Part shown: positions 1 to 62,504 of the stretch, piece by piece | Numbering within the stretch: position 1 is the first letter of the stretch | How the letters are laid out: each line of letters begins with the position of its first letter | Assembly: GCA_963665235.2 (NCBI GenBank) | Contig: CAXXLX010000001.1 | Location: 672,001 to 736,000 of the forward strand | Reading direction: 5' to 3' | Source of the DNA: Candidatus Poribacteria bacterium | Lineage (GTDB): Bacteria > Poribacteria > WGA-4E > WGA-3G | Length of the DNA stretch: 64,000 bases | Made by a program: the position numbers and the translations under genes | Notes under the pieces: generated by a model | What the model was told of the DNA's origin: nothing | What the model saw: only the letters and a program-made list of their open reading frames with translations | Database searches by the model: none

Positions 1-21
1 CGCCTGTCTGAGTATGGGAGT

Positions 22-37
22 TGGCACGAAATTTGCT
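22..37 (+). promoter_or_regulatory. sigma-54 (-24/-12) promoter
   Basis: TGGCAC-gaaat-TTGCT matches the TGGCAC-N5-TTGC consensus, upstream of CDS 202. Confidence 0.7.
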
Positions 38-201
38 ACTAATATCTAAAGTAGCAACCCGCTCCGGTTTTAGTGGGTTGTAGGAGGATGTTTGAAATCT
101 ACGCGATATCAAAGATGTTTCTCAAGAGATAGTCCTTGTGATTGCGAAACATTTTCACAAGCTCACCCTGTGAAACATCTGAAAACGAAAGAGGTTCTAA
201 A

Positions 202-978
202 ATGTTACGCGAATATTTTACAAATAGGTGGACTATAGGTGGTTTCTTATTGCTTCTGCTTTTCGCGGTGTTTTGCCATCTCTGGCTTCGGCAGGAGACT
301 GCGAAACTCCAAAAACAGGAGGCGGAAAACGCAGAGGGACACCGCCAATTGATAGATTCCGAAAAAGTGGATACTAACAGCAAGGTGGAACAACAAGCAG
401 GCGATGCTCCCGTAGAAAGCATCACGTCCCCCTCGGGGAAAACAGCCGAAAGAATCGAGGCCGTATCGGAAACCGGCACTACCCCCAACGCGGCAGAGGA
501 TACCGTTTCCACAGTCACATCGGAAACGGAAAACACAACTGGCCGGGTTTCCCCCTACGGATTCGGGCCCTACCCTGAAATTCCACCCGGCTATCCAGAC
601 CCGAATATCTTTGATAAACCGAGGTCCTCTATAACGTACGAATTAATGATGCGCGTTGATGTTAAGTTATGGCAACAAGGTATACGCACCGAGGGCATAG
701 GGATTAGTTATAAAACCGGACTAGTTTATCCGACCATCCCAGGGACTATTTATGTCACTTGGACAGATTTCCGCATGCCGAATGGCAGTGTGACACGAGT
801 CGCTGGAAGTATAAGCGGACATTCAGACACGGTGGATGCCTTACCTCGGCGTGGTTTACCCGGAATTCCTTCGAGTCCCTCAAACTTTGTATTTGAAAGT
901 GATATTCCATCACATATCAGAATTCTAGAAGACTCTGAGGGCATAGACCCTTACGAGTTCCTAAACTTAAAGGAGTAA
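202..978 (+). CDS. hypothetical N-terminally membrane-anchored protein
   Basis: ORF 142..978; ATG at 202 after GAGG; one TM helix (IGGFLLLLLFAVFCHLW), low-complexity linker, C-terminal 'VSPYGFGPYPEIP' domain. Confidence 0.75.
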   Translation: MLREYFTNRWTIGGFLLLLLFAVFCHLWLRQETAKLQKQEAENAEGHRQLIDSEKVDTNSKVEQQAGDAPVESITSPSGKTAERIEAVSETGTTPNAAEDTVSTVTSETENTTGRVSPYGFGPYPEIPPGYPDPNIFDKPRSSITYELMMRVDVKLWQQGIRTEGIGISYKTGLVYPTIPGTIYVTWTDFRMPNGSVTRVAGSISGHSDTVDALPRRGLPGIPSSPSNFVFESDIPSHIRILEDSEGIDPYEFLNLKE

Positions 979-983
979 CCAAA

Positions 984-1185
984 GTAAAGATCACCCTGCT
1001 AAAGCATGGGTGCTTTGACATAGCGTAACCACACGTTCCCTGTCAAAGATTAAGTTCTTCACTACAGTAATATATCGGTATATCTGTGGTGGTGCACAAA
1101 GGTGTTTCGGATGCTCCCCAAGTCCGATGTAAACGCTGATATACCGATCTGGATGGGGAAATACAAACTCTACGGAGAATTACAA
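984..1185 (+). ncRNA. omegaRNA (HEARO-like) scaffold of IsrB; guide would be the 5' flank (~964-983)
   Basis: Non-coding ~200 nt upstream of isrB with stems CACCC/GGGTG, CTTTGACA/TGTCAAAG, TCGGA/TCCGA and loop TCCCCA complementary to TGGGGA; motifs shared with the 8877-9345 element. Confidence 0.8.
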
Positions 1186-1188
1186 ACT

Positions 1189-2217
1189 ATGTTTGTTCCT
1201 GTCGTTGACAAAAACCAAAATCCACTGATGCCGACAAAGCCTTCGCGGGCAAGGAAGTGGATACGAGACAAGAAAGCCACACCGTTTTGGAAGAATGGCG
1301 TTTTTTGTGTGCGCCTTAACGCCGACCCTTCGGATAGATACTTCCAACAGATATGCGTAGGCGTAGACCCCGGCAGTAAGAAGGAAGGCTTTACCGTCAA
1401 GAGCGAGGCACATACCTACCTAAATGTGCAAGCAGACGCTCACAACAAGGTTGGAAAGAAAATCGAGAAGCGTCGGACGTTGCGGAGAAGCAGACGCACA
1501 CGGAAATGCCCGAATCGAAAAAAGAAGCAGCACAACCTGTCGAACCGGAAGCGTATCCCTGCAGGCACACGTGCAAGATGGGATTGGAAACTTCGCATAT
1601 TAGATTGGTTGTCTAAACTCTATCCTGTTACACACGTCTGTGTTGAGGATATTAAGGCGCGGACAAAACAGTATCAAAAGCAGTGGAATCAGGCCTTCAG
1701 TCCTTTGGAAGTGGGCAAGCATTGGTTCTATTCAGAGGTAGAAAAGCGATGGGAACTCCTGACGATACAAGGGTTTGAAACCAAAGAGATACGCGAGCGG
1801 CTTGGTCTCAACAAGTCGTCAAAGAAGTTAGCTGAAACCTTTGAGGCACATTGCGTTGATAGTTGGTGCTTGGCCTATCACACCGTTGGCGGTTTAGAGA
1901 TACCCGACAATACCGATATATTCTGTATCTCACCGATACCGATACGCAGGCGAGAACTCCACAGACAAAATCCGCAGAAAGGTGGCAATCGCCCGCGATA
2001 TGGTGGCACCTTATTAGGCGATGGACTTGTTAAAAACACATTAATAAAGCACAACAAATACGGATTAACACGCCTTGCGGGTGTTAATGCTAAAGGACTA
2101 TTCTCTGTCTATTCAAAAGATGGACACCGATTAACAACGGGGGCAAAACGCACGGATTTTCAAGTGCTAACACGCTTGAACTTCAACTATAAAGGCGGAT
2201 TTTCCTCCCCCGCATAA
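1189..2217 (+). CDS. isrB: IsrB RNA-guided nickase (RRXRR/PLMP domain, split RuvC, no HNH)
   Basis: 342 aa from ATG 1189; PLMP motif (NPLMPT), RuvC-I VGVDPG, Arg-rich bridge helix RRTLRRSRR, RuvC-II VEDI, RuvC-III HCVDS; no HNH motif between II and III. Confidence 0.88.
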   Translation: MFVPVVDKNQNPLMPTKPSRARKWIRDKKATPFWKNGVFCVRLNADPSDRYFQQICVGVDPGSKKEGFTVKSEAHTYLNVQADAHNKVGKKIEKRRTLRRSRRTRKCPNRKKKQHNLSNRKRIPAGTRARWDWKLRILDWLSKLYPVTHVCVEDIKARTKQYQKQWNQAFSPLEVGKHWFYSEVEKRWELLTIQGFETKEIRERLGLNKSSKKLAETFEAHCVDSWCLAYHTVGGLEIPDNTDIFCISPIPIRRRELHRQNPQKGGNRPRYGGTLLGDGLVKNTLIKHNKYGLTRLAGVNAKGLFSVYSKDGHRLTTGAKRTDFQVLTRLNFNYKGGFSSPA

Positions 2218-2247
2218 ATGCTGGGGGTTTCCAATCCGAAGATTTTG

Positions 2248-2850
2248 ATGAAAAAGTTTTCTGTTTTATTAATCATCGCGATGACTTTTAGCATCACCCT
2301 AATCGGTTTTTCTAAGCGTGGTCCAGTTAATGGAAAATGGTACAACCGCGATAAAGATGTAGAAAAACGATGGACTGACCGTGAAACCGCTGACCCCGAG
2401 ATACCCGATTTCTATATAACGATTACAAGGGAAGGTGAAGATTCTGACGGGCCGGCGTTTAGTGAGAGTTATGCATCGGCTGATCAGCATCTGCTATATG
2501 CCTGGACATATATAGGTGCAAGAGGCTCTGCACCGCACGATGTATGGGAGTGGCGGGGGTCCGCATTCTTAGCTCATGATTGGGTTACAACGACCCCGGG
2601 ACCAAATCCTCATGCCGATTCAGGCGCTATTAAAGGGGACTTTACAAAAGAATTCAATGTGTATTTGAGAGAATTCGGTCACCTCCCACCTGAGGGCACT
2701 ATCTCTGATTGTCAGTCAGATGGTTGGGTAGCGTCAGACATAGCAAAGATCTCTCCCGAGGAACGTCATAGCACGTTAAGCCGAACGGATGATAACCATA
2801 GAGATATCTACATCAACGGGAAAAAACAGCAACCAGAGGATAACCCGTGA
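2248..2850 (+). CDS. hypothetical secreted protein
   Basis: Signal-peptide-like MKKFSVLLIIAMTFSITLIGFS; its ATG directly follows the IsrB element end. Confidence 0.7.
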   Translation: MKKFSVLLIIAMTFSITLIGFSKRGPVNGKWYNRDKDVEKRWTDRETADPEIPDFYITITREGEDSDGPAFSESYASADQHLLYAWTYIGARGSAPHDVWEWRGSAFLAHDWVTTTPGPNPHADSGAIKGDFTKEFNVYLREFGHLPPEGTISDCQSDGWVASDIAKISPEERHSTLSRTDDNHRDIYINGKKQQPEDNP

Positions 2851-2874
2851 TGCAATCCAATTGACTGTAACGTT

Positions 2875-3049
2875 TGTATGCGCGCTTTGATGAAGTTTAA
2901 ATAAAATTTCGGTAATCGACAAGCAATAAATTGCCGGACTACAAACAAACGCGTTCAGTATTCGGGCAAGCAGCCCGCTCCTCTGGGCGATTTATTACCC
3001 GTTCCGAAAGGACCGAATTTAAAAATTAATCTTCATAAGCGCGCATACA
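2875..3049. repeat. MITE-like element with long imperfect terminal inverted repeats enclosing REP-like hairpins
   Basis: tgtatgcgcgctttgatgaag...atttcggt / accgaattt...cttcataagcgcgcataca; internal cagtattcgggcaa.cagcccgctc also occurs twice at 36165-36270. Confidence 0.6.
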
Positions 3050-3133
3050 TATTGGATTAAGACGTCAGATCCCTCCGTTCTATCACCTTCCATAACCGCT
3101 TCTCCTGCTGGCACTGGCGAGAGAAATAGGGGC

Positions 3134-3922
3134 TTAATTGAATTCAATCATTCCGCCTGTGCCTTTGAGTATGATATCAGGCTTCAGCATAATCTGATCT
3201 TCGTCGGCCCGTATAGCTCCGGTTTGATTGGTTCCGTTTTTATCGAGCAGATATGCAATTCGGCGTGGTAAGAGTCTGCCCAAATCGGCCTCCATTTCAA
3301 CCGGTTCCTTGAAAATGATTTGTCCACTCTGCTGTGTTTGATAAGCGAACCAATATTTCAGGTATTTTCGAATGGGGTTGCTATAAAGGAGCTCACCAGA
3401 TGCCGCCTCAATAACTTTGATACGAACTTTGCCTAATGCGGTTTGACGGCTTCGGAGATAAAAAGTTCCCCCTCTCGCAGCTGTGGATTGTCGGCCGTGT
3501 CGGATGAGACGTTCGTCAAAATCCTTTTTATCCAATTTAGCTTTAGAGACGCCTCCCAAAATGATCATGTCCGCTTCAAAAGCCTGTCCGACTTTAGCGG
3601 CTAACGCTGCATCTTCATAAATATCGCTTAGCGTTAATCCAAGCTCTTCAAGTTTAGCACTTACCGGGCGAACCTTGTCGGATTCATCATGAATCCATTC
3701 CATCTCCTTCTCATAAAGAAGTTTAAGATGATTGGCTAAATTGATACTAAGATTTTTACTCAGTGCTCCCGCTTCTTCTACCTCAGGGAGGAATGGTGCT
3801 ACGACAACCCGTTTGGCTTCGACAATAGGGGGTGGCGTGTCAATATTAATCTCCCCGCCCCCAAAGCATCCGGGCATTGTCATGAGGAAAATAGGTATTA
3901 ATAGAAAACTAAAAAAACGCAT
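3134..3922 (-). CDS. hypothetical lipoprotein (possibly CsgG/TolB-N-like fold)
   Basis: AGGAGG RBS before ATG 3922; lipobox-like MPGC; 'VVVAPF...ADMIILGGV' pattern. Confidence 0.65.
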   Translation of the reverse strand: MRFFSFLLIPIFLMTMPGCFGGGEINIDTPPPIVEAKRVVVAPFLPEVEEAGALSKNLSINLANHLKLLYEKEMEWIHDESDKVRPVSAKLEELGLTLSDIYEDAALAAKVGQAFEADMIILGGVSKAKLDKKDFDERLIRHGRQSTAARGGTFYLRSRQTALGKVRIKVIEAASGELLYSNPIRKYLKYWFAYQTQQSGQIIFKEPVEMEADLGRLLPRRIAYLLDKNGTNQTGAIRADEDQIMLKPDIILKGTGGMIEFN

Positions 3923-8844: not shown

Positions 8845-8876
8845 AAAATTTCTCCTTCTTCATCGCGCTTTGTCAT

Positions 8877-9345
8877 CAAAATATTCGGTGTGGAGACCCC
8901 CAGCATTTATGCGGGGGAGGAAACACCGCTCCCATTCGTTCTATATTTCCCCCCAAAGGGGGAGTCGGGTTGTTTTTTCGCCACAAGCCCGTAGGCGTTC
9001 CTCGCAGACTGTGCTGCTTCGTTCAACAGAACTCGCACTTTCTGTTTACTTGACCTGACACGGTATCTTTGAAAAAACAGGTAAGGCCCCTTTCGGGTTC
9101 TCCGCTTACGCGGGTATATGTTTCCCCATCCAGATCACATAAGCGTAGTGGGTTAAGACTTGGGGAGCATCCTTCAGTGAAATCGTCCAACCACAGACGA
9201 CCCACCTTTTTAGATAACCATACTTTGGACTGCCATGTCCAGCCTCTGCGATATATTACTGTAGTCAACAAGTTACCCTCGTCCCTGTAATAGCCTTGGC
9301 GGGCATCAGGGACAAGCCCCCATGCTTTAGCTGGGGGTTATTGAC
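8877..9345 (-). mobile_element. non-autonomous IS200/IS605-type element carrying a stand-alone omegaRNA (no nuclease ORF)
   Basis: Minus strand starts GTCAATAACCCCCAGCTAAAGCATGGGGGCTTG and ends TTCCTCCCCCGCATAAATGCTGGGGG...TTTTG|ATGA like element 984-2247; no IsrB ORF inside. Confidence 0.85.
9070..9345 (-). ncRNA. orphan omegaRNA/HEARO-like scaffold (3' boundary approximate)
   Basis: Shares ACTACAGTAATATATCG, GGATGCTCCCCAAGTC and GATCTGGATGGGGAAA with 984-1185; stems covary. Confidence 0.8.
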
Positions 9346-59607: not shown

Positions 59608-59631
59608 TTCTCCCTTTTCCTTTATAGGTTA

Positions 59632-59843
59632 TACCATTTTTATTAATTATTCTATCATTACCGATTGTTAGAAATGAAACGGAGAACGACCCAAACTGGA
59701 AGTTTATGCTACAATAAAGAGGCACAAACTGGAAGTTTATGCTACAATAAAGAGGCACAAACTGGAAGTTTATGCTACAATAAAGAGGCACAAACTGGAA
59801 GTTTATGCTACAATAAAGAGACATTTTCAATTTAGAAATGGTA
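59632..59843 (-). repeat. MITE copy C (complete) with 33-bp tandem array (4 cores)
   Basis: Same ends as copy B, TAA TSD; unit tagcataaacttccagtttgtgcctctttattg. Confidence 0.9.
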
Positions 59844-59853
59844 TTATATTATA

Positions 59854-60205
59854 CTATAGTTTGGACAATATCTGTCCGGTGGATCCCCGATTTTCAAAGC
59901 ATTTCTGATTTTTCTCAAAGTTGCTCACACACGGGCAACTTGTAGAAAATAGACTCGAATGCTCGGAAGCGCAGCCCCAGCGGGGCGGTATCTTTATAGA
60001 AAACCCAACCACACCACAACCTAGCCCCAGCGGGGCGGTATCTTTATAGATTTTACCCAAACCCCTCTTCTTTCCGCGTCCTCTGCGGCCTCTGTGCCTT
60101 CCGTGATTCAGACAACACAAGCAAACTCCACCCTTCCACCCTTCCACCCTTCCACCTATCCCTTTGACAATAACGTTACGCCCCCTAAAATTGTCCAAAG
60201 TTTAG
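59854..60205. mobile_element. MITE with 16-bp imperfect TIR and 9-bp TSD
   Basis: CTATAGTTTGGACAAT / ATTGTCCAAAGTTTAG; TATATTATA at 59845-59853 and 60206-60214. Confidence 0.75.
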
Positions 60206-60255
60206 TATATTATACCATGAAAAAAAACCGTACGAAAATTTCCATCAATGTCGCT

Positions 60256-60510
60256 CTATCCCACTTGAATCAGTTTGAACTTTGCGTTTGCCTCTTCTGC
60301 ACCGACGAAACGACTATAAATTGCAACATGGCTGAGCGTGCCTTCCCAATTCCTGCCGCCGCTTGCCTCATCGCCGAAAAGGAACGGATATAATGTCCAA
60401 TTGCTGAAGTCCCCCTGAATTCCGCTGCCGGTGTAGACCTGTTCTCCATCAATATAGCAGTAGATGTTCCCCGAAAAATAGCTGACGATGACGTGCATCG
60501 GTTTACCTGC
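60256..60510 (-). pseudogene. 3' fragment (LamG domain end) of the IS-interrupted gene
   Basis: AGKPMHVIVSY..YIDG..GDEASGGRNWEG.LSHVAIYSR joins in frame with ...GKIE at 62505. Confidence 0.85.
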
Positions 60511-60544
60511 GTGATACTCACAACGCCTAAAGGCGTGTGCTTCT

Positions 60545-61795
60545 TTACCGCCTCTTGGACGGTTTACTTGATATGAGTCCCGAAAACGGTGACCACGAAT
60601 CAAGTCTACATAGGTTCGGATTATACCTGATACCTACGGGGGATACCACCACCCCGACTACAGGGTTAAAAAGGTAACCCTGATACGCTGTGAGAATATT
60701 ACTCGCACCCACTACATCTCTATGACCGTGCCACCCGCATTTGGGGCATTTATATTTTCGTTTGACTGGTTTTTTGCGATTACCGCAACTTGGGCAGGTT
60801 TGAGAGGTATAGGCTTCGTTTTGGGTATCAACTTTGATACCAAGTGCTTTTGCTTTGTAGGTAATCATCTCTCTAAACTGAGAGAATGCCCACTGGTGTA
60901 ACTTCTCATTGGTTTTTCTACCGTAGTTTATGGATTGTCGGATATGCTTAATATCACCAATAACAATCGTTTCTATCTTTCGCTCTCGGCAAGTAGAAAC
61001 AAAACGTGATGTGATTTTGTGTCGCATGTCACGTAACTGCGACGCTATTTTTGCCAGGAGTTTATCTTTAGCGCGCTTAAGTTTTTTCCAACGCCGACTG
61101 CCTCGCTTGCATCTTGAGAGTTTACGGTTGAGACCCCCTTTGGACTTCTCGCGATACCGCACTTTACTGCGGTGTTCTCGTCCGTTGTAGATTTCGGCAG
61201 TGATACCGTCGAAAGCAGTGATTGGGTGTATTTCACCCATATCGACTGCAACGGCTGTCCCGTGTTTTATCTTTGGCTGTTTCGGTTGTGTTTGGTACGT
61301 TGCATGGAACTCATACGCTTTTGTTATTTTGTTGTAGACAAGGGATACTTCGGTTGGCACAATCTTATGGAATTTCTTGTCAAGCTTGATATAGAGGGCT
61401 TCCCGTCCTTGACCCATAGACAATCGGAGTCTGCCATGTTTATAGGTGATACCCGTTGCACGCCAGGTGAAAGTGTGGAATTTATATGTCCGTTTCGGCG
61501 GCTTTGCCTTGGGATTAGATTGTTTATTCGAAAAGAAAGAACGCCTCGCACCGCAATAGTCGTCTATAACTGCCTGAACAGAATGGGCATGGCAGGGATA
61601 CCGCTTAAACTTAAGATATTTCTTGAGGCCAGCGTCCGACAACCAAAAACCCTTTTTGTTGTATGTTCTAAACGCAAGTGATACCGTTTTGGAATAGATT
61701 CGCCCACCGAGACGATTTATCGCGTCTAATTCCGCTGTCGGTTTTGCTGTTGCTATAATGTAGGTTCGAAACGTTTTGGTATCCTTTTTAGACAT
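60545..61795 (-). CDS. tnpB: TnpB RNA-guided nuclease
   Basis: AVDMGE, VIGD, NEAYTSQTCPSC..CPKC, HRDVVGA; ATG 61795 overlaps the tnpA end. Confidence 0.93.
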   Translation of the reverse strand: MSKKDTKTFRTYIIATAKPTAELDAINRLGGRIYSKTVSLAFRTYNKKGFWLSDAGLKKYLKFKRYPCHAHSVQAVIDDYCGARRSFFSNKQSNPKAKPPKRTYKFHTFTWRATGITYKHGRLRLSMGQGREALYIKLDKKFHKIVPTEVSLVYNKITKAYEFHATYQTQPKQPKIKHGTAVAVDMGEIHPITAFDGITAEIYNGREHRSKVRYREKSKGGLNRKLSRCKRGSRRWKKLKRAKDKLLAKIASQLRDMRHKITSRFVSTCRERKIETIVIGDIKHIRQSINYGRKTNEKLHQWAFSQFREMITYKAKALGIKVDTQNEAYTSQTCPSCGNRKKPVKRKYKCPKCGWHGHRDVVGASNILTAYQGYLFNPVVGVVVSPVGIRYNPNLCRLDSWSPFSGLISSKPSKRR

Positions 61796-62201
61796 GCTTT
61801 TGGTCCTCAATATACTTTTTGACAACTTCTAAGGAGGTGCTACCTACAGATGATATAAATTTAGAACGCGTCCACAAACAAGGCAAGCGAGATTTTAGGA
61901 ATGCCAACTCCTCACGTAACACCCTAGAGGTAAACCCTTTTATCAGCCCAACCGTCCGTGTAACTGGCACTTTTGGGGTGTTTTCTATTATCATAAGCAC
62001 GGGGTCTTCCATAACCTCGCTGGCACACACCTTAAAATCTAACTCGGTTTGTTTAGAACAGATTAGATGGTGCAAGCGTTTTTGTATCGGTTCGGTTAAA
62101 ACTTGGTGCCGATACTTCGGACACCAGACGACATGATACTGACAACTGTAAACAAGGTTTGTCTCGGAGGACCAATGCTTTTCTCCATTCTTAATAAACA
62201 T
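61788..62201 (-). CDS. tnpA: IS200-type Y1 transposase TnpA (HUH motif degenerate)
   Basis: YHVVWCPKYR, KGFTSR, LWTRS, KYIEDQ; DPVL where DHVH is expected. Confidence 0.88.
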   Translation of the reverse strand: MFIKNGEKHWSSETNLVYSCQYHVVWCPKYRHQVLTEPIQKRLHHLICSKQTELDFKVCASEVMEDPVLMIIENTPKVPVTRTVGLIKGFTSRVLREELAFLKSRLPCLWTRSKFISSVGSTSLEVVKKYIEDQKHV

Positions 62202-62243
62202 TAGACGTTATAATGATTTAATCAGAATACGCCTGTGAACCTT

Positions 62244-62309
62244 GTAGGGGTGAGGTCCCCTCGCCCTATAAACATGATTTCAAATCGGGCGGGGAAACCC
62301 CGCCCCTAC
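62244..62309. repeat. inverted pair of GTAG-family REP palindromes
   Basis: GTAGGGGTGAGGTCCCCTCGCCC ... GGGCGGGGAAACCCCGCCCCTAC. Confidence 0.75.
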
Positions 62310-62504
62310 GCCCCGCACCTGCTAACGAAACAGAGGACTACAATTAAACCGGCATAATGTCTATTATACTATATCCCTTATCTGTTAGTTTCTATAATAG
62401 AGTATAACACATTTCCCATAAAAAGTCAAACGATTTGATTACAGATGCACGAGAGACGCGGGTTGGCCCCAAGTCTAAAGACTTGGGATTGTTAAGGGAG
62501 TCCC

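Follow-up and report, generated by a model that had tools for sequence, protein, structure and literature searches.

The ISC1 and ISC2 elements have been described as non-autonomous relatives of the IS200/IS605 transposons, with 5′-GT termini and with insertion at N|ATGA that is backed by empty-site comparisons (Kapitonov 2016, PMC4810608). IsrB, the HNH-less form of IscB found in ISC1-type elements, has been characterised from Desulfovirgula thermocuniculi (DtIsrB, PDB 8DMB), where the target-adjacent motif (TAM) is NTGA/TTGA and the protein is active on ATGA (Hirano 2022, PMC9581776). For IscB, the transposon end supplies the omegaRNA scaffold, and the guide, encoded beyond the element boundary, depends on outside transcription; TnpA and the nuclease read the same motif, and the scarless donor joint is a target of the nuclease (Meers 2023, 10.1101/2023.03.14.532601). 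Here we describe an element of this kind at positions 984 to 2247 of a 64,000-nucleotide stretch of Candidatus Poribacteria DNA (the window; assembly GCA_963665235.2, contig CAXXLX010000001.1, positions 672,001 to 736,000), where it parts a host gene from its Shine-Dalgarno (SD) sequence. We put at roughly 0.85 the probability that 984-2247 is one copy of a multi-copy, non-autonomous ISC1 (IsrB) element of the IS200/IS605 superfamily, to which the published model of mobilisation, guide use and retention applies.

Almost all of this interpretation is already contained in the main texts of the three papers cited above. The likeness to ISC1-1_MA (PMC4810608) extends to a length of ~1.3 kb, the lack of autonomy, an HNH-less IscB1 (= IsrB), a 5′-GT terminus, subterminal imperfect hairpins, the absence of target duplication and insertion directly upstream of ATGA, and for ISC1 a partner IS605 with tnpB on the opposite strand and one end in common has also been reported. 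In contrast to ISC1-1_MA, which has 4 copies, ~30 copies are present here, in several subfamilies and accompanied by eight isrB-less derivatives, and the partner IS605 sits at ATAA. Shared with DtIsrB (PMC9581776) are the domain order over residues 3-329, the RuvC catalytic residues, an Arg aligned to the one that reads G, a predicted structured RNA of ~200 nt ahead of isrB whose 3′ end holds the SD of that gene, and a flank that fits NTGA. The alignment with DtIsrB is significant but distant, with a Thr at the position of Q326 and with the TI domain aligned at moderate confidence. The features common to IscB/TnpB of Geobacillus stearothermophilus (Meers 2023) are a guide outside the element, dependence on host transcription, co-oriented upstream genes, a TAM that coincides with the transposase target and scarless excision. 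Two differences are that IsrB acts as a nickase and that the AT-rich Geobacillus TAM holds no start codon. The phrase "start codon" has no occurrence in the main text of Kapitonov 2016 (PMC4810608). In the literature covered, which did not take in the supplements of Kapitonov 2016 and Meers 2023 or the first HEARO paper, we found neither a genome-wide count of start-codon bias for IsrB or IscB nor a report of such insertions before single-copy housekeeping genes.

Anatomy and boundaries of the element

The source genome comprises 5.3 Mb in four contigs; coordinates beyond the window carry the prefix C1 or C2. The left junction (983/984) reads ...TTAAAGGAGTAACCAAA|GTAAAGATCACCC..., with GTAAAGATCACCC as the first letters of the element, and the right junction (2247/2248) reads ...CCGAAGATTTTG|ATGAAAAAG..., with CCGAAGATTTTG as the element end and ATGAAAAAG running from 2248. 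The SD sequence AAGGAG occupies 970-975 and is followed by TAACCAAA at 976-983, which includes the stop codon TAA (976-978) of the upstream gene. Deletion of 984-2247 in silico results in AAGGAG, 8 nt and ATG. The extent of the element, 1,264 bp on the forward strand, is given by 31 paired copies in the genome and by the joint at an empty site. Across seven copies that match over all 1,264 bp at 94-100% identity, similarity ends exactly before GTAAAG (984) and after ATGA, and alignment of 20 diverse copies from several subfamilies gave the same boundaries. The flanks of the copies are unrelated and target-site duplication is absent. The sequence-only reading had placed an IsrB element exactly between a ribosome-binding site (RBS) and its start codon, and this placement was right to the base, at 983|984 and 2247|2248 with AAGGAG-N8-ATG restored.

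Subterminal hairpins, each with a bulged T, are present at 992-1012 (CACCCTGC-TAAA-GCATGGGTG) and at 2207-2227 (CCCCCGCA-TAAA-TGCTGGGGG), with 20 nt more between the latter and the end of the element. Such imperfect hairpins are a hallmark of IS200/IS605 ends. The hairpins occur here without terminal inverted repeats, and a fixed 4-nt target lies beside one end without being duplicated, as seen at 32 of 35 right ends and at the empty joint from 983 to 2248. The ATGA at 2248-2251 comprises the host start codon and the first base of codon 2, and would also be the target of TnpA and, going by the published motifs, the TAM of IsrB.

The isrB gene (1189-2217, forward strand) encodes 342 amino acids, and its stop codon TAA (2215-2217) lies inside the loop of the right hairpin. 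The sole family match of the protein in Pfam was RRXRR (PF14239, 1.4e-32, residues 3-164). Alignment to DtIsrB (8dmb) gave 9.6e-38, and a profile of 11 family members aligned to the same structure at 2.2e-44 over residues 3-329. A PLMP motif is present at residues 12-15, and the split RuvC residues, D60 (VDPG), E153 (VED) and H221 with D224 (HCVD), are invariant in the 11 sequences. Also invariant is R314, aligned to the G-reading R323 of DtIsrB, the residue numbering on the tagged PDB chain having been deduced from the R-x-x-Q spacing. No HNH family matched the 342-residue protein at E values up to 0.01, and the alignment with DtIsrB was continuous. On these sequence comparisons the protein is an HNH-less IsrB, because it combines the RRXRR/PLMP domain and invariant RuvC residues with the lack of an HNH family and with the alignment to 8dmb; the earlier identification of the protein as IsrB thus stands.

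The stretch from 984 to 1188 on the same strand, which includes the left hairpin, is a putative HEARO-like omegaRNA scaffold. HEARO (RF02033) matched 984-1164, starting exactly at 984, with 25.8 bits (E 0.006), a score far under the Rfam gathering score of 83, and at gathering thresholds Rfam had no match across the whole 64-kb window. Thirteen diverged versions of the 205-nt stretch upstream of isrB, taken from this genome and from relatives, have a common fold with 47 consensus pairs, and compensatory changes were observed in 24 of these pairs.

An empty site was detected among the Logan contigs of four public runs, which were compared with positions 1-3200 of the window. A 3,042-nt contig from run X1 had 1 mismatch over positions 1-983 and then passed straight into 2248-2277. 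This joint skips 1264 positions with zero ambiguous letters and retains ATGA. As ATGA is kept at the joint, the motif is host sequence and the element is 984-2247. The seamless joint also bears out the earlier proposal that the insertion is precisely reversible. Run X1 has no cover over 2355-2782 and provides no evidence either way for that region.

Genomic copies and the start-codon bias

A tblastn search of the genome with IsrB gave 31 matches. Profiles of the element ends, with a threshold of at least 35 bits, detected 35 right ends, 31 of which were paired with a left end, and a full or nearly full isrB was present in ~20 of the paired copies. ATGA followed directly after 32 of the 35 right ends, the exceptions being AGGA, ATAC and ATTG; the expectation by chance is ~1 in 256. 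The base after ATGA is mostly A, resulting in ATGAA. No conserved motif was observed in the left flanks, which exhibit only SD-like runs at variable distance. The sequence-only reading had taken ATGA as target motif and TAM, and this is upheld by the count of right ends, by retention of ATGA at the empty site and by agreement with the published NTGA and N|ATGA motifs.

Eight derivatives of 450-652 bp lack isrB but retain a left portion resembling omegaRNA together with the right end, and five of them are located exactly at start codons. One of the eight, identified with the end profiles, is the second IsrB-type element of the window (469 bp, 8877-9345, reverse strand). On its own strand it is followed by an ATGA at 8873-8876 that is intercistronic, 32 nt upstream of the SD and ATG belonging to the next gene, and is not a start codon. 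Both OMEGA elements of the window are hence followed by ATGA, at 2248-2251 on the forward and 8873-8876 on the reverse strand, as had been noted from the sequence alone. The other derivatives are at C1:19462-19938, 337433-337901, 504553-505002, 532866-533432, 1154421-1154878, 1512440-1513091 and 1888074-1888563. These isrB-less forms resemble passengers consisting of omegaRNA only, which would need IsrB and TnpA in trans.

Two repeats of the window are associated with IsrB copies elsewhere. A 28-nt GC-rich palindrome resembling repetitive extragenic palindromic elements, located at 2956-2983 downstream of the host gene at 2248, has more than 100 genomic copies, and the IsrB copy at C1:3020110 carries a related sequence inserted near its left end, within the left part. 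A repeat of ~170 bp at 62198-62368 begins ...ATGATTTAATCAGA; a further copy has taken up the IsrB element C1:3828785-3830050 at its ATGA, and the two would allow an internal empty-site comparison.

For analysis of target sites, an ATG was classed as start-like if the open reading frame (ORF) from it spanned 100 codons or more and was preceded by no more than 60 in-frame codons. Start-like sites accounted for 19 of the 30 ATGA-flanked paired copies compared with 7.3% of the 39,549 ATGA sites in the genome (binomial P 6e-15), and an SD 4-mer at -18 to -4 preceded 12 of the 30 copies compared with 3.0% of all ATGA sites (P 3e-11). A second null, based on a crude gene map (4,026 genes, 84% coding), was restricted to sites at which no ORF would be broken (2,149 start-like and 4,926 intergenic ATGA sites); it raised the expectation to 30%, with P 2e-4 for 19 or more of 30, and is conservative because the start-like class is over-counted. 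An SD was present at 1,095 of the 2,149 start-like sites, about half of the start-like sites of this genome being without one.

The start-like ATGs beside the elements are real starts. NCBIfam matches from model position 1-2 within the first 1-10 residues were obtained for LeuC (residues 1-465 on model positions 1-466 of 466), MurJ, ArgJ and 5-formyltetrahydrofolate cyclo-ligase (MTHFS), and a fifth host protein with an NCBIfam match at its start has a double-transmembrane (two-anchor) N-terminal domain. Several other host proteins start with signal or lipoprotein peptides. Four genes, leuC, murJ, argJ and the MTHFS gene, were checked for copy number and all were single copy. Element and upstream predicted gene share their orientation in 26 of the 31 paired copies; for the downstream gene the figure is 30 of 31. 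The co-orientation of upstream genes agrees with a bias reported in Meers 2023 (10.1101/2023.03.14.532601). GC skew, examined to relate element orientation to the direction of replication, is too faint here to mark the origin or terminus.

These results establish that the start-codon bias in this genome is real and strong. IsrB relatives were also found in 14 of the 40 related genomes searched. Boundaries at 27 loci of these relatives were called as the first [AG]TG[AG] after the conserved end core, a pattern that provides no independent test of the motif: 21 were called, as ATGA (16), GTGA (4) and ATGG (1), and six loci gave no call. The called boundary opened an ORF of at least 100 codons at 10 of the 21 loci, and SD-like runs end many of the upstream flanks. 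Judged from these sequences, the start-codon pattern is not peculiar to one genome. The first description of HEARO RNAs, in 2009, is said to mention insertion beside ATGA or GTGA. At one locus (L060 of relative G013) the copy is followed by AGGAGATGAAT and is apparently inserted before AGGA just upstream of the SD, and not at ATGA; the target there may be off by one base. The earlier claims that insertion is biased to start codons and that a gene is parted from its RBS without breakage of its ORF both held, the first with 19 of 30 copies against 7.3% and with the same pattern in relatives.

The bias could instead arise at integration, if the transposase or the availability of single-stranded DNA favoured translation-initiation regions, for instance by way of a target longer than ATGA or of open, transcribed DNA, rather than by later loss of copies; we regard this as unlikely, though it has some evidence in its favour. 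The youngest copies are already biased, with start-codon sites for 6 of the 7 copies that are 94-100% identical and for all 3 copies at 99.6-100%. Most copies have an A after ATGA, and the observed bias exceeds the conservative null that assumes selection only. Against a bias at integration, the upstream flank has no conserved motif beyond SD-like runs at variable distance, and 11 of the 30 copies occupy ATGA sites that are not starts. IS200/IS605 transposases are known to read a target of only 4-5 nt by DNA-DNA pairing (PMC4810608), and excision is frequent in the published system, so that purging could be fast (10.1101/2023.03.14.532601).

Proposed mobilisation, guide and retention

The genome contains 13 matches to the Y1_Tnp family (PF01797) and 44 TnpB-domain matches. 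Among these elements are tnpA-tnpB IS605 copies with a hairpin near-identical (CCCCCAGCTAAAGCATGGGGG) and an end similar (...GGAAGACTTG) to those of the IsrB elements. Copies with this IsrB-type hairpin are located at C1:31461-33244, C2:338531-340321 and C1:3153067-3154820, and tnpB-only IS605 copies of ~1.4 kb with the same hairpin also occur (e.g., C1:63530-64927). On the strand used by the transposase, the targets are TCAT for IsrB elements and TTAT for IS605, a difference that accompanies G versus A four bases before the foot of the hairpin. This correspondence is of the type that DNA-guided target choice in the superfamily would predict.

Transposition chemistry, guide usage, nicking and the mechanism of retention are taken over here from the published systems. 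A Y1 TnpA supplied in trans by a co-resident tnpA-tnpB IS605 would move the element as single-stranded DNA, with insertion directly 5′ of ATGA on the isrB strand, equivalent to 3′ of TCAT on the active strand of the transposase. There would be no target duplication, and excision would be seamless. Without an outward promoter of its own for the guide, the element would rely on host read-through from the upstream gene, driven at this site possibly by a sigma-54 promoter at 22-37. The resulting transcript would yield an omegaRNA whose 5′ 20 nt serve as guide. By the published IsrB/IscB architecture, the guide is predicted to be the host flank 964-983, which includes the SD at 970-975, and the TAM to be 2248-2251. 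The earlier suggestion that the native guide is the RBS region follows from that architecture and fits the HEARO-like match starting at 984. IsrB with its omegaRNA would then recognise the empty site, through the guide match and the ATGA TAM, and nick it, and the nick would favour re-copying of the element from the sister chromosome. Copies that persist would accumulate exactly at start codons, between SD and ATG, because ATGA contains ATG, because copies that break an ORF would be lost and because only copies transcribed in the sense direction would make a guide.

Several points weigh against this reading. Cross-mobilisation is assumed, and ATAA, in place of ATGA, flanks the IS605 copies that carry tnpA. 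A Thr is present in this family where Q326 of DtIsrB reads the fourth base of the TAM. The HEARO score lies well below the gathering score, and the 5′ end of the omegaRNA, the nicking and the steps of transposition are all assigned by homology. Away from start codons there are 11 copies, found in intergenic DNA or repeats and including the short one at 8877-9345, and the null fractions for the bias are approximate, the gene map being crude. The shorter side of the empty-site contig from run X1 is 30 letters against a bar of 31 for bridging, although a 30-letter overhang in a 31-mer graph should still require reads that span the junction. Run X1 and the genome assembly possibly stem from one sampling campaign, in which case X1 would represent a polymorphism within that population and not an independent lineage. 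No empty site was found in the 40 related genomes, where the product of the host gene at 2248 has no close homologue (best match, 39% identity over 75 amino acids); the source genome is the sole member of its genus among the 41 genomes searched. Scans of metagenome contigs with the protein of this gene and with the exact 26-nt upstream flank likewise gave no empty site, near-identical records possibly having been left out of both. The comparison with empty alleles proposed by the sequence-only reading was hence successful in part, with the predicted junction in a public run and none in the related genomes.

Host genes behind the element and the surrounding sequence

Initiation should be crippled by 1.3 kb placed between SD and ATG, yet the single-copy genes murJ, leuC and argJ carry such an insert. 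Supply of an RBS by the element was considered and was unsupported: none of the SD-like 4-mers GGAG, GAGG, AGGA and AAGG occurs in the last 18 nt of the element, and the element in place lowered the predicted accessibility of the start region, to 0.43 against 0.54 for an in-silico joint of the flanks (n = 19; Wilcoxon P 0.009). The right hairpin has a stop codon in its loop that, in 28 of the 31 paired copies, is in frame with the host ATG and exactly 33 nt ahead of it; where isrB is intact, it is the stop of that gene. One variant of the end has TAA followed directly by ATG and 10 open codons into the host ATG. A speculative explanation, for which we hold only a low expectation, is that the element is translationally "transparent" at start codons: ribosomes that finish isrB would re-initiate on the host gene, with translational coupling in place of the displaced SD. 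Such coupling of termination and reinitiation is not readily reconciled with the short copies at start codons that lack isrB. If true, coupling would explain how single-copy murJ, leuC and argJ tolerate the insert, and the gap between SD and ATG would be a safe harbour that also supplies transcription of the guide.

The copies at start codons might also have been kept for the benefit of the host, as reversible switches or attenuators of translation that turn genes down on insertion and restore them on seamless excision. The separation of SD from start codon, the lower predicted accessibility with the element in place and the empty allele in run X1 are all in keeping with such a role. We consider it improbable, since no functional theme unites the host genes, whose products are a mixture of housekeeping, secreted and unknown proteins, and since the heavy IS200/IS605 load of this genome, as counted above for TnpB-domain and TnpA matches, fits selfish spread. 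That ATGA is instead the last four bases of the element, which would bring its own start codon to whatever lies downstream, is hardly credible: ATGA is conserved in the copy alignment just as an element end would be, and the boundary is not placeable from the copies alone, but the joint in X1 keeps ATGA, the profile matches of leuC, murJ and argJ begin at that Met and published empty sites show N|ATGA (PMC4810608).

The host gene upstream of the IsrB element (202-978, forward strand) starts with ATG at 202, or alternatively with TTG at 142, and has no family match; its stop codon TAA at 976-978 lies in the SD-ATG spacer of the next gene. That gene (2248-2850, forward strand) encodes 200 amino acids with a signal-peptide-like N-terminus (MKKFSVLLIIAMTFSITLIGFS), again without a family match. 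A sigma-54-type consensus, TGGCAC-N5-TTGC (TGGCACgaaatTTGC), is present at 22-37 on the forward strand, in a divergent intergenic region 165 nt before the ATG at 202. The site has the GG-N10-GC core, is intergenic and has a co-oriented gene downstream, and rpoN is encoded in the genome. The exact motif has 52 genomic matches against ~9 expected from composition; 19 of the 52 fall in the ~16% left as non-coding by the crude gene map, mostly upstream of co-oriented genes. The IsrB copy at C1:3598792, located between TAGGAG and the ATG of a 501-amino-acid gene, also has an exact motif, which starts 55 nt upstream of it (C1:3598737-3598792). No sigma-70-like site was detected on the forward strand between the gene at 202-978 and the element. 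The motif that had been reported at 22-37 is hence present, with a good match to the consensus, and the genome possesses rpoN and makes use of promoters of this type. Promoter activity at 22-37 is plausible from these sequence features, and we infer, and no more than that, that it may feed guide production. RNA-library contigs from run X7 cover 284-952, 984-1078, 1561-2099 and 2248-2615 at ~90-95% likeness. As the likeness is only at this level, they come from a relative; they hold no information on starts, strands or levels, and no conclusion on transcription or on the sigma-54 promoter was drawn from them.

A complete tnpA-tnpB IS605 element is present in the window at ~60510-62203 on the reverse strand, with TnpA at 61800-62153 and the zinc-ribbon of TnpB at 60695-60886. 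Its end hairpin differs from that of the IsrB elements, and it is 96% identical to a copy at C2:794063-795756. Close to it, positions 59620-60215 hold short, highly repeated sequences with hundreds of genomic sites, whose matches are offset by ~32-33 nt (59692-59823) and ~50 nt (59973-60050), suggesting tandem sub-repeats.

The genome constitutes a natural data set on the site choice and retention of OMEGA elements, with ~30 independent insertions and base-exact boundaries, most of which part a gene from its SD. For tool builders, it offers several diverged IsrB/omegaRNA pairs, a probable ATGA TAM and natural isrB-less, omegaRNA-only derivatives. It also raises the testable question of how essential single-copy genes stay translated behind a 1.3-kb insert. 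The case illustrates how a TAM that contains ATG, together with a need for host read-through, would funnel an RNA-guided transposon into translation starts.

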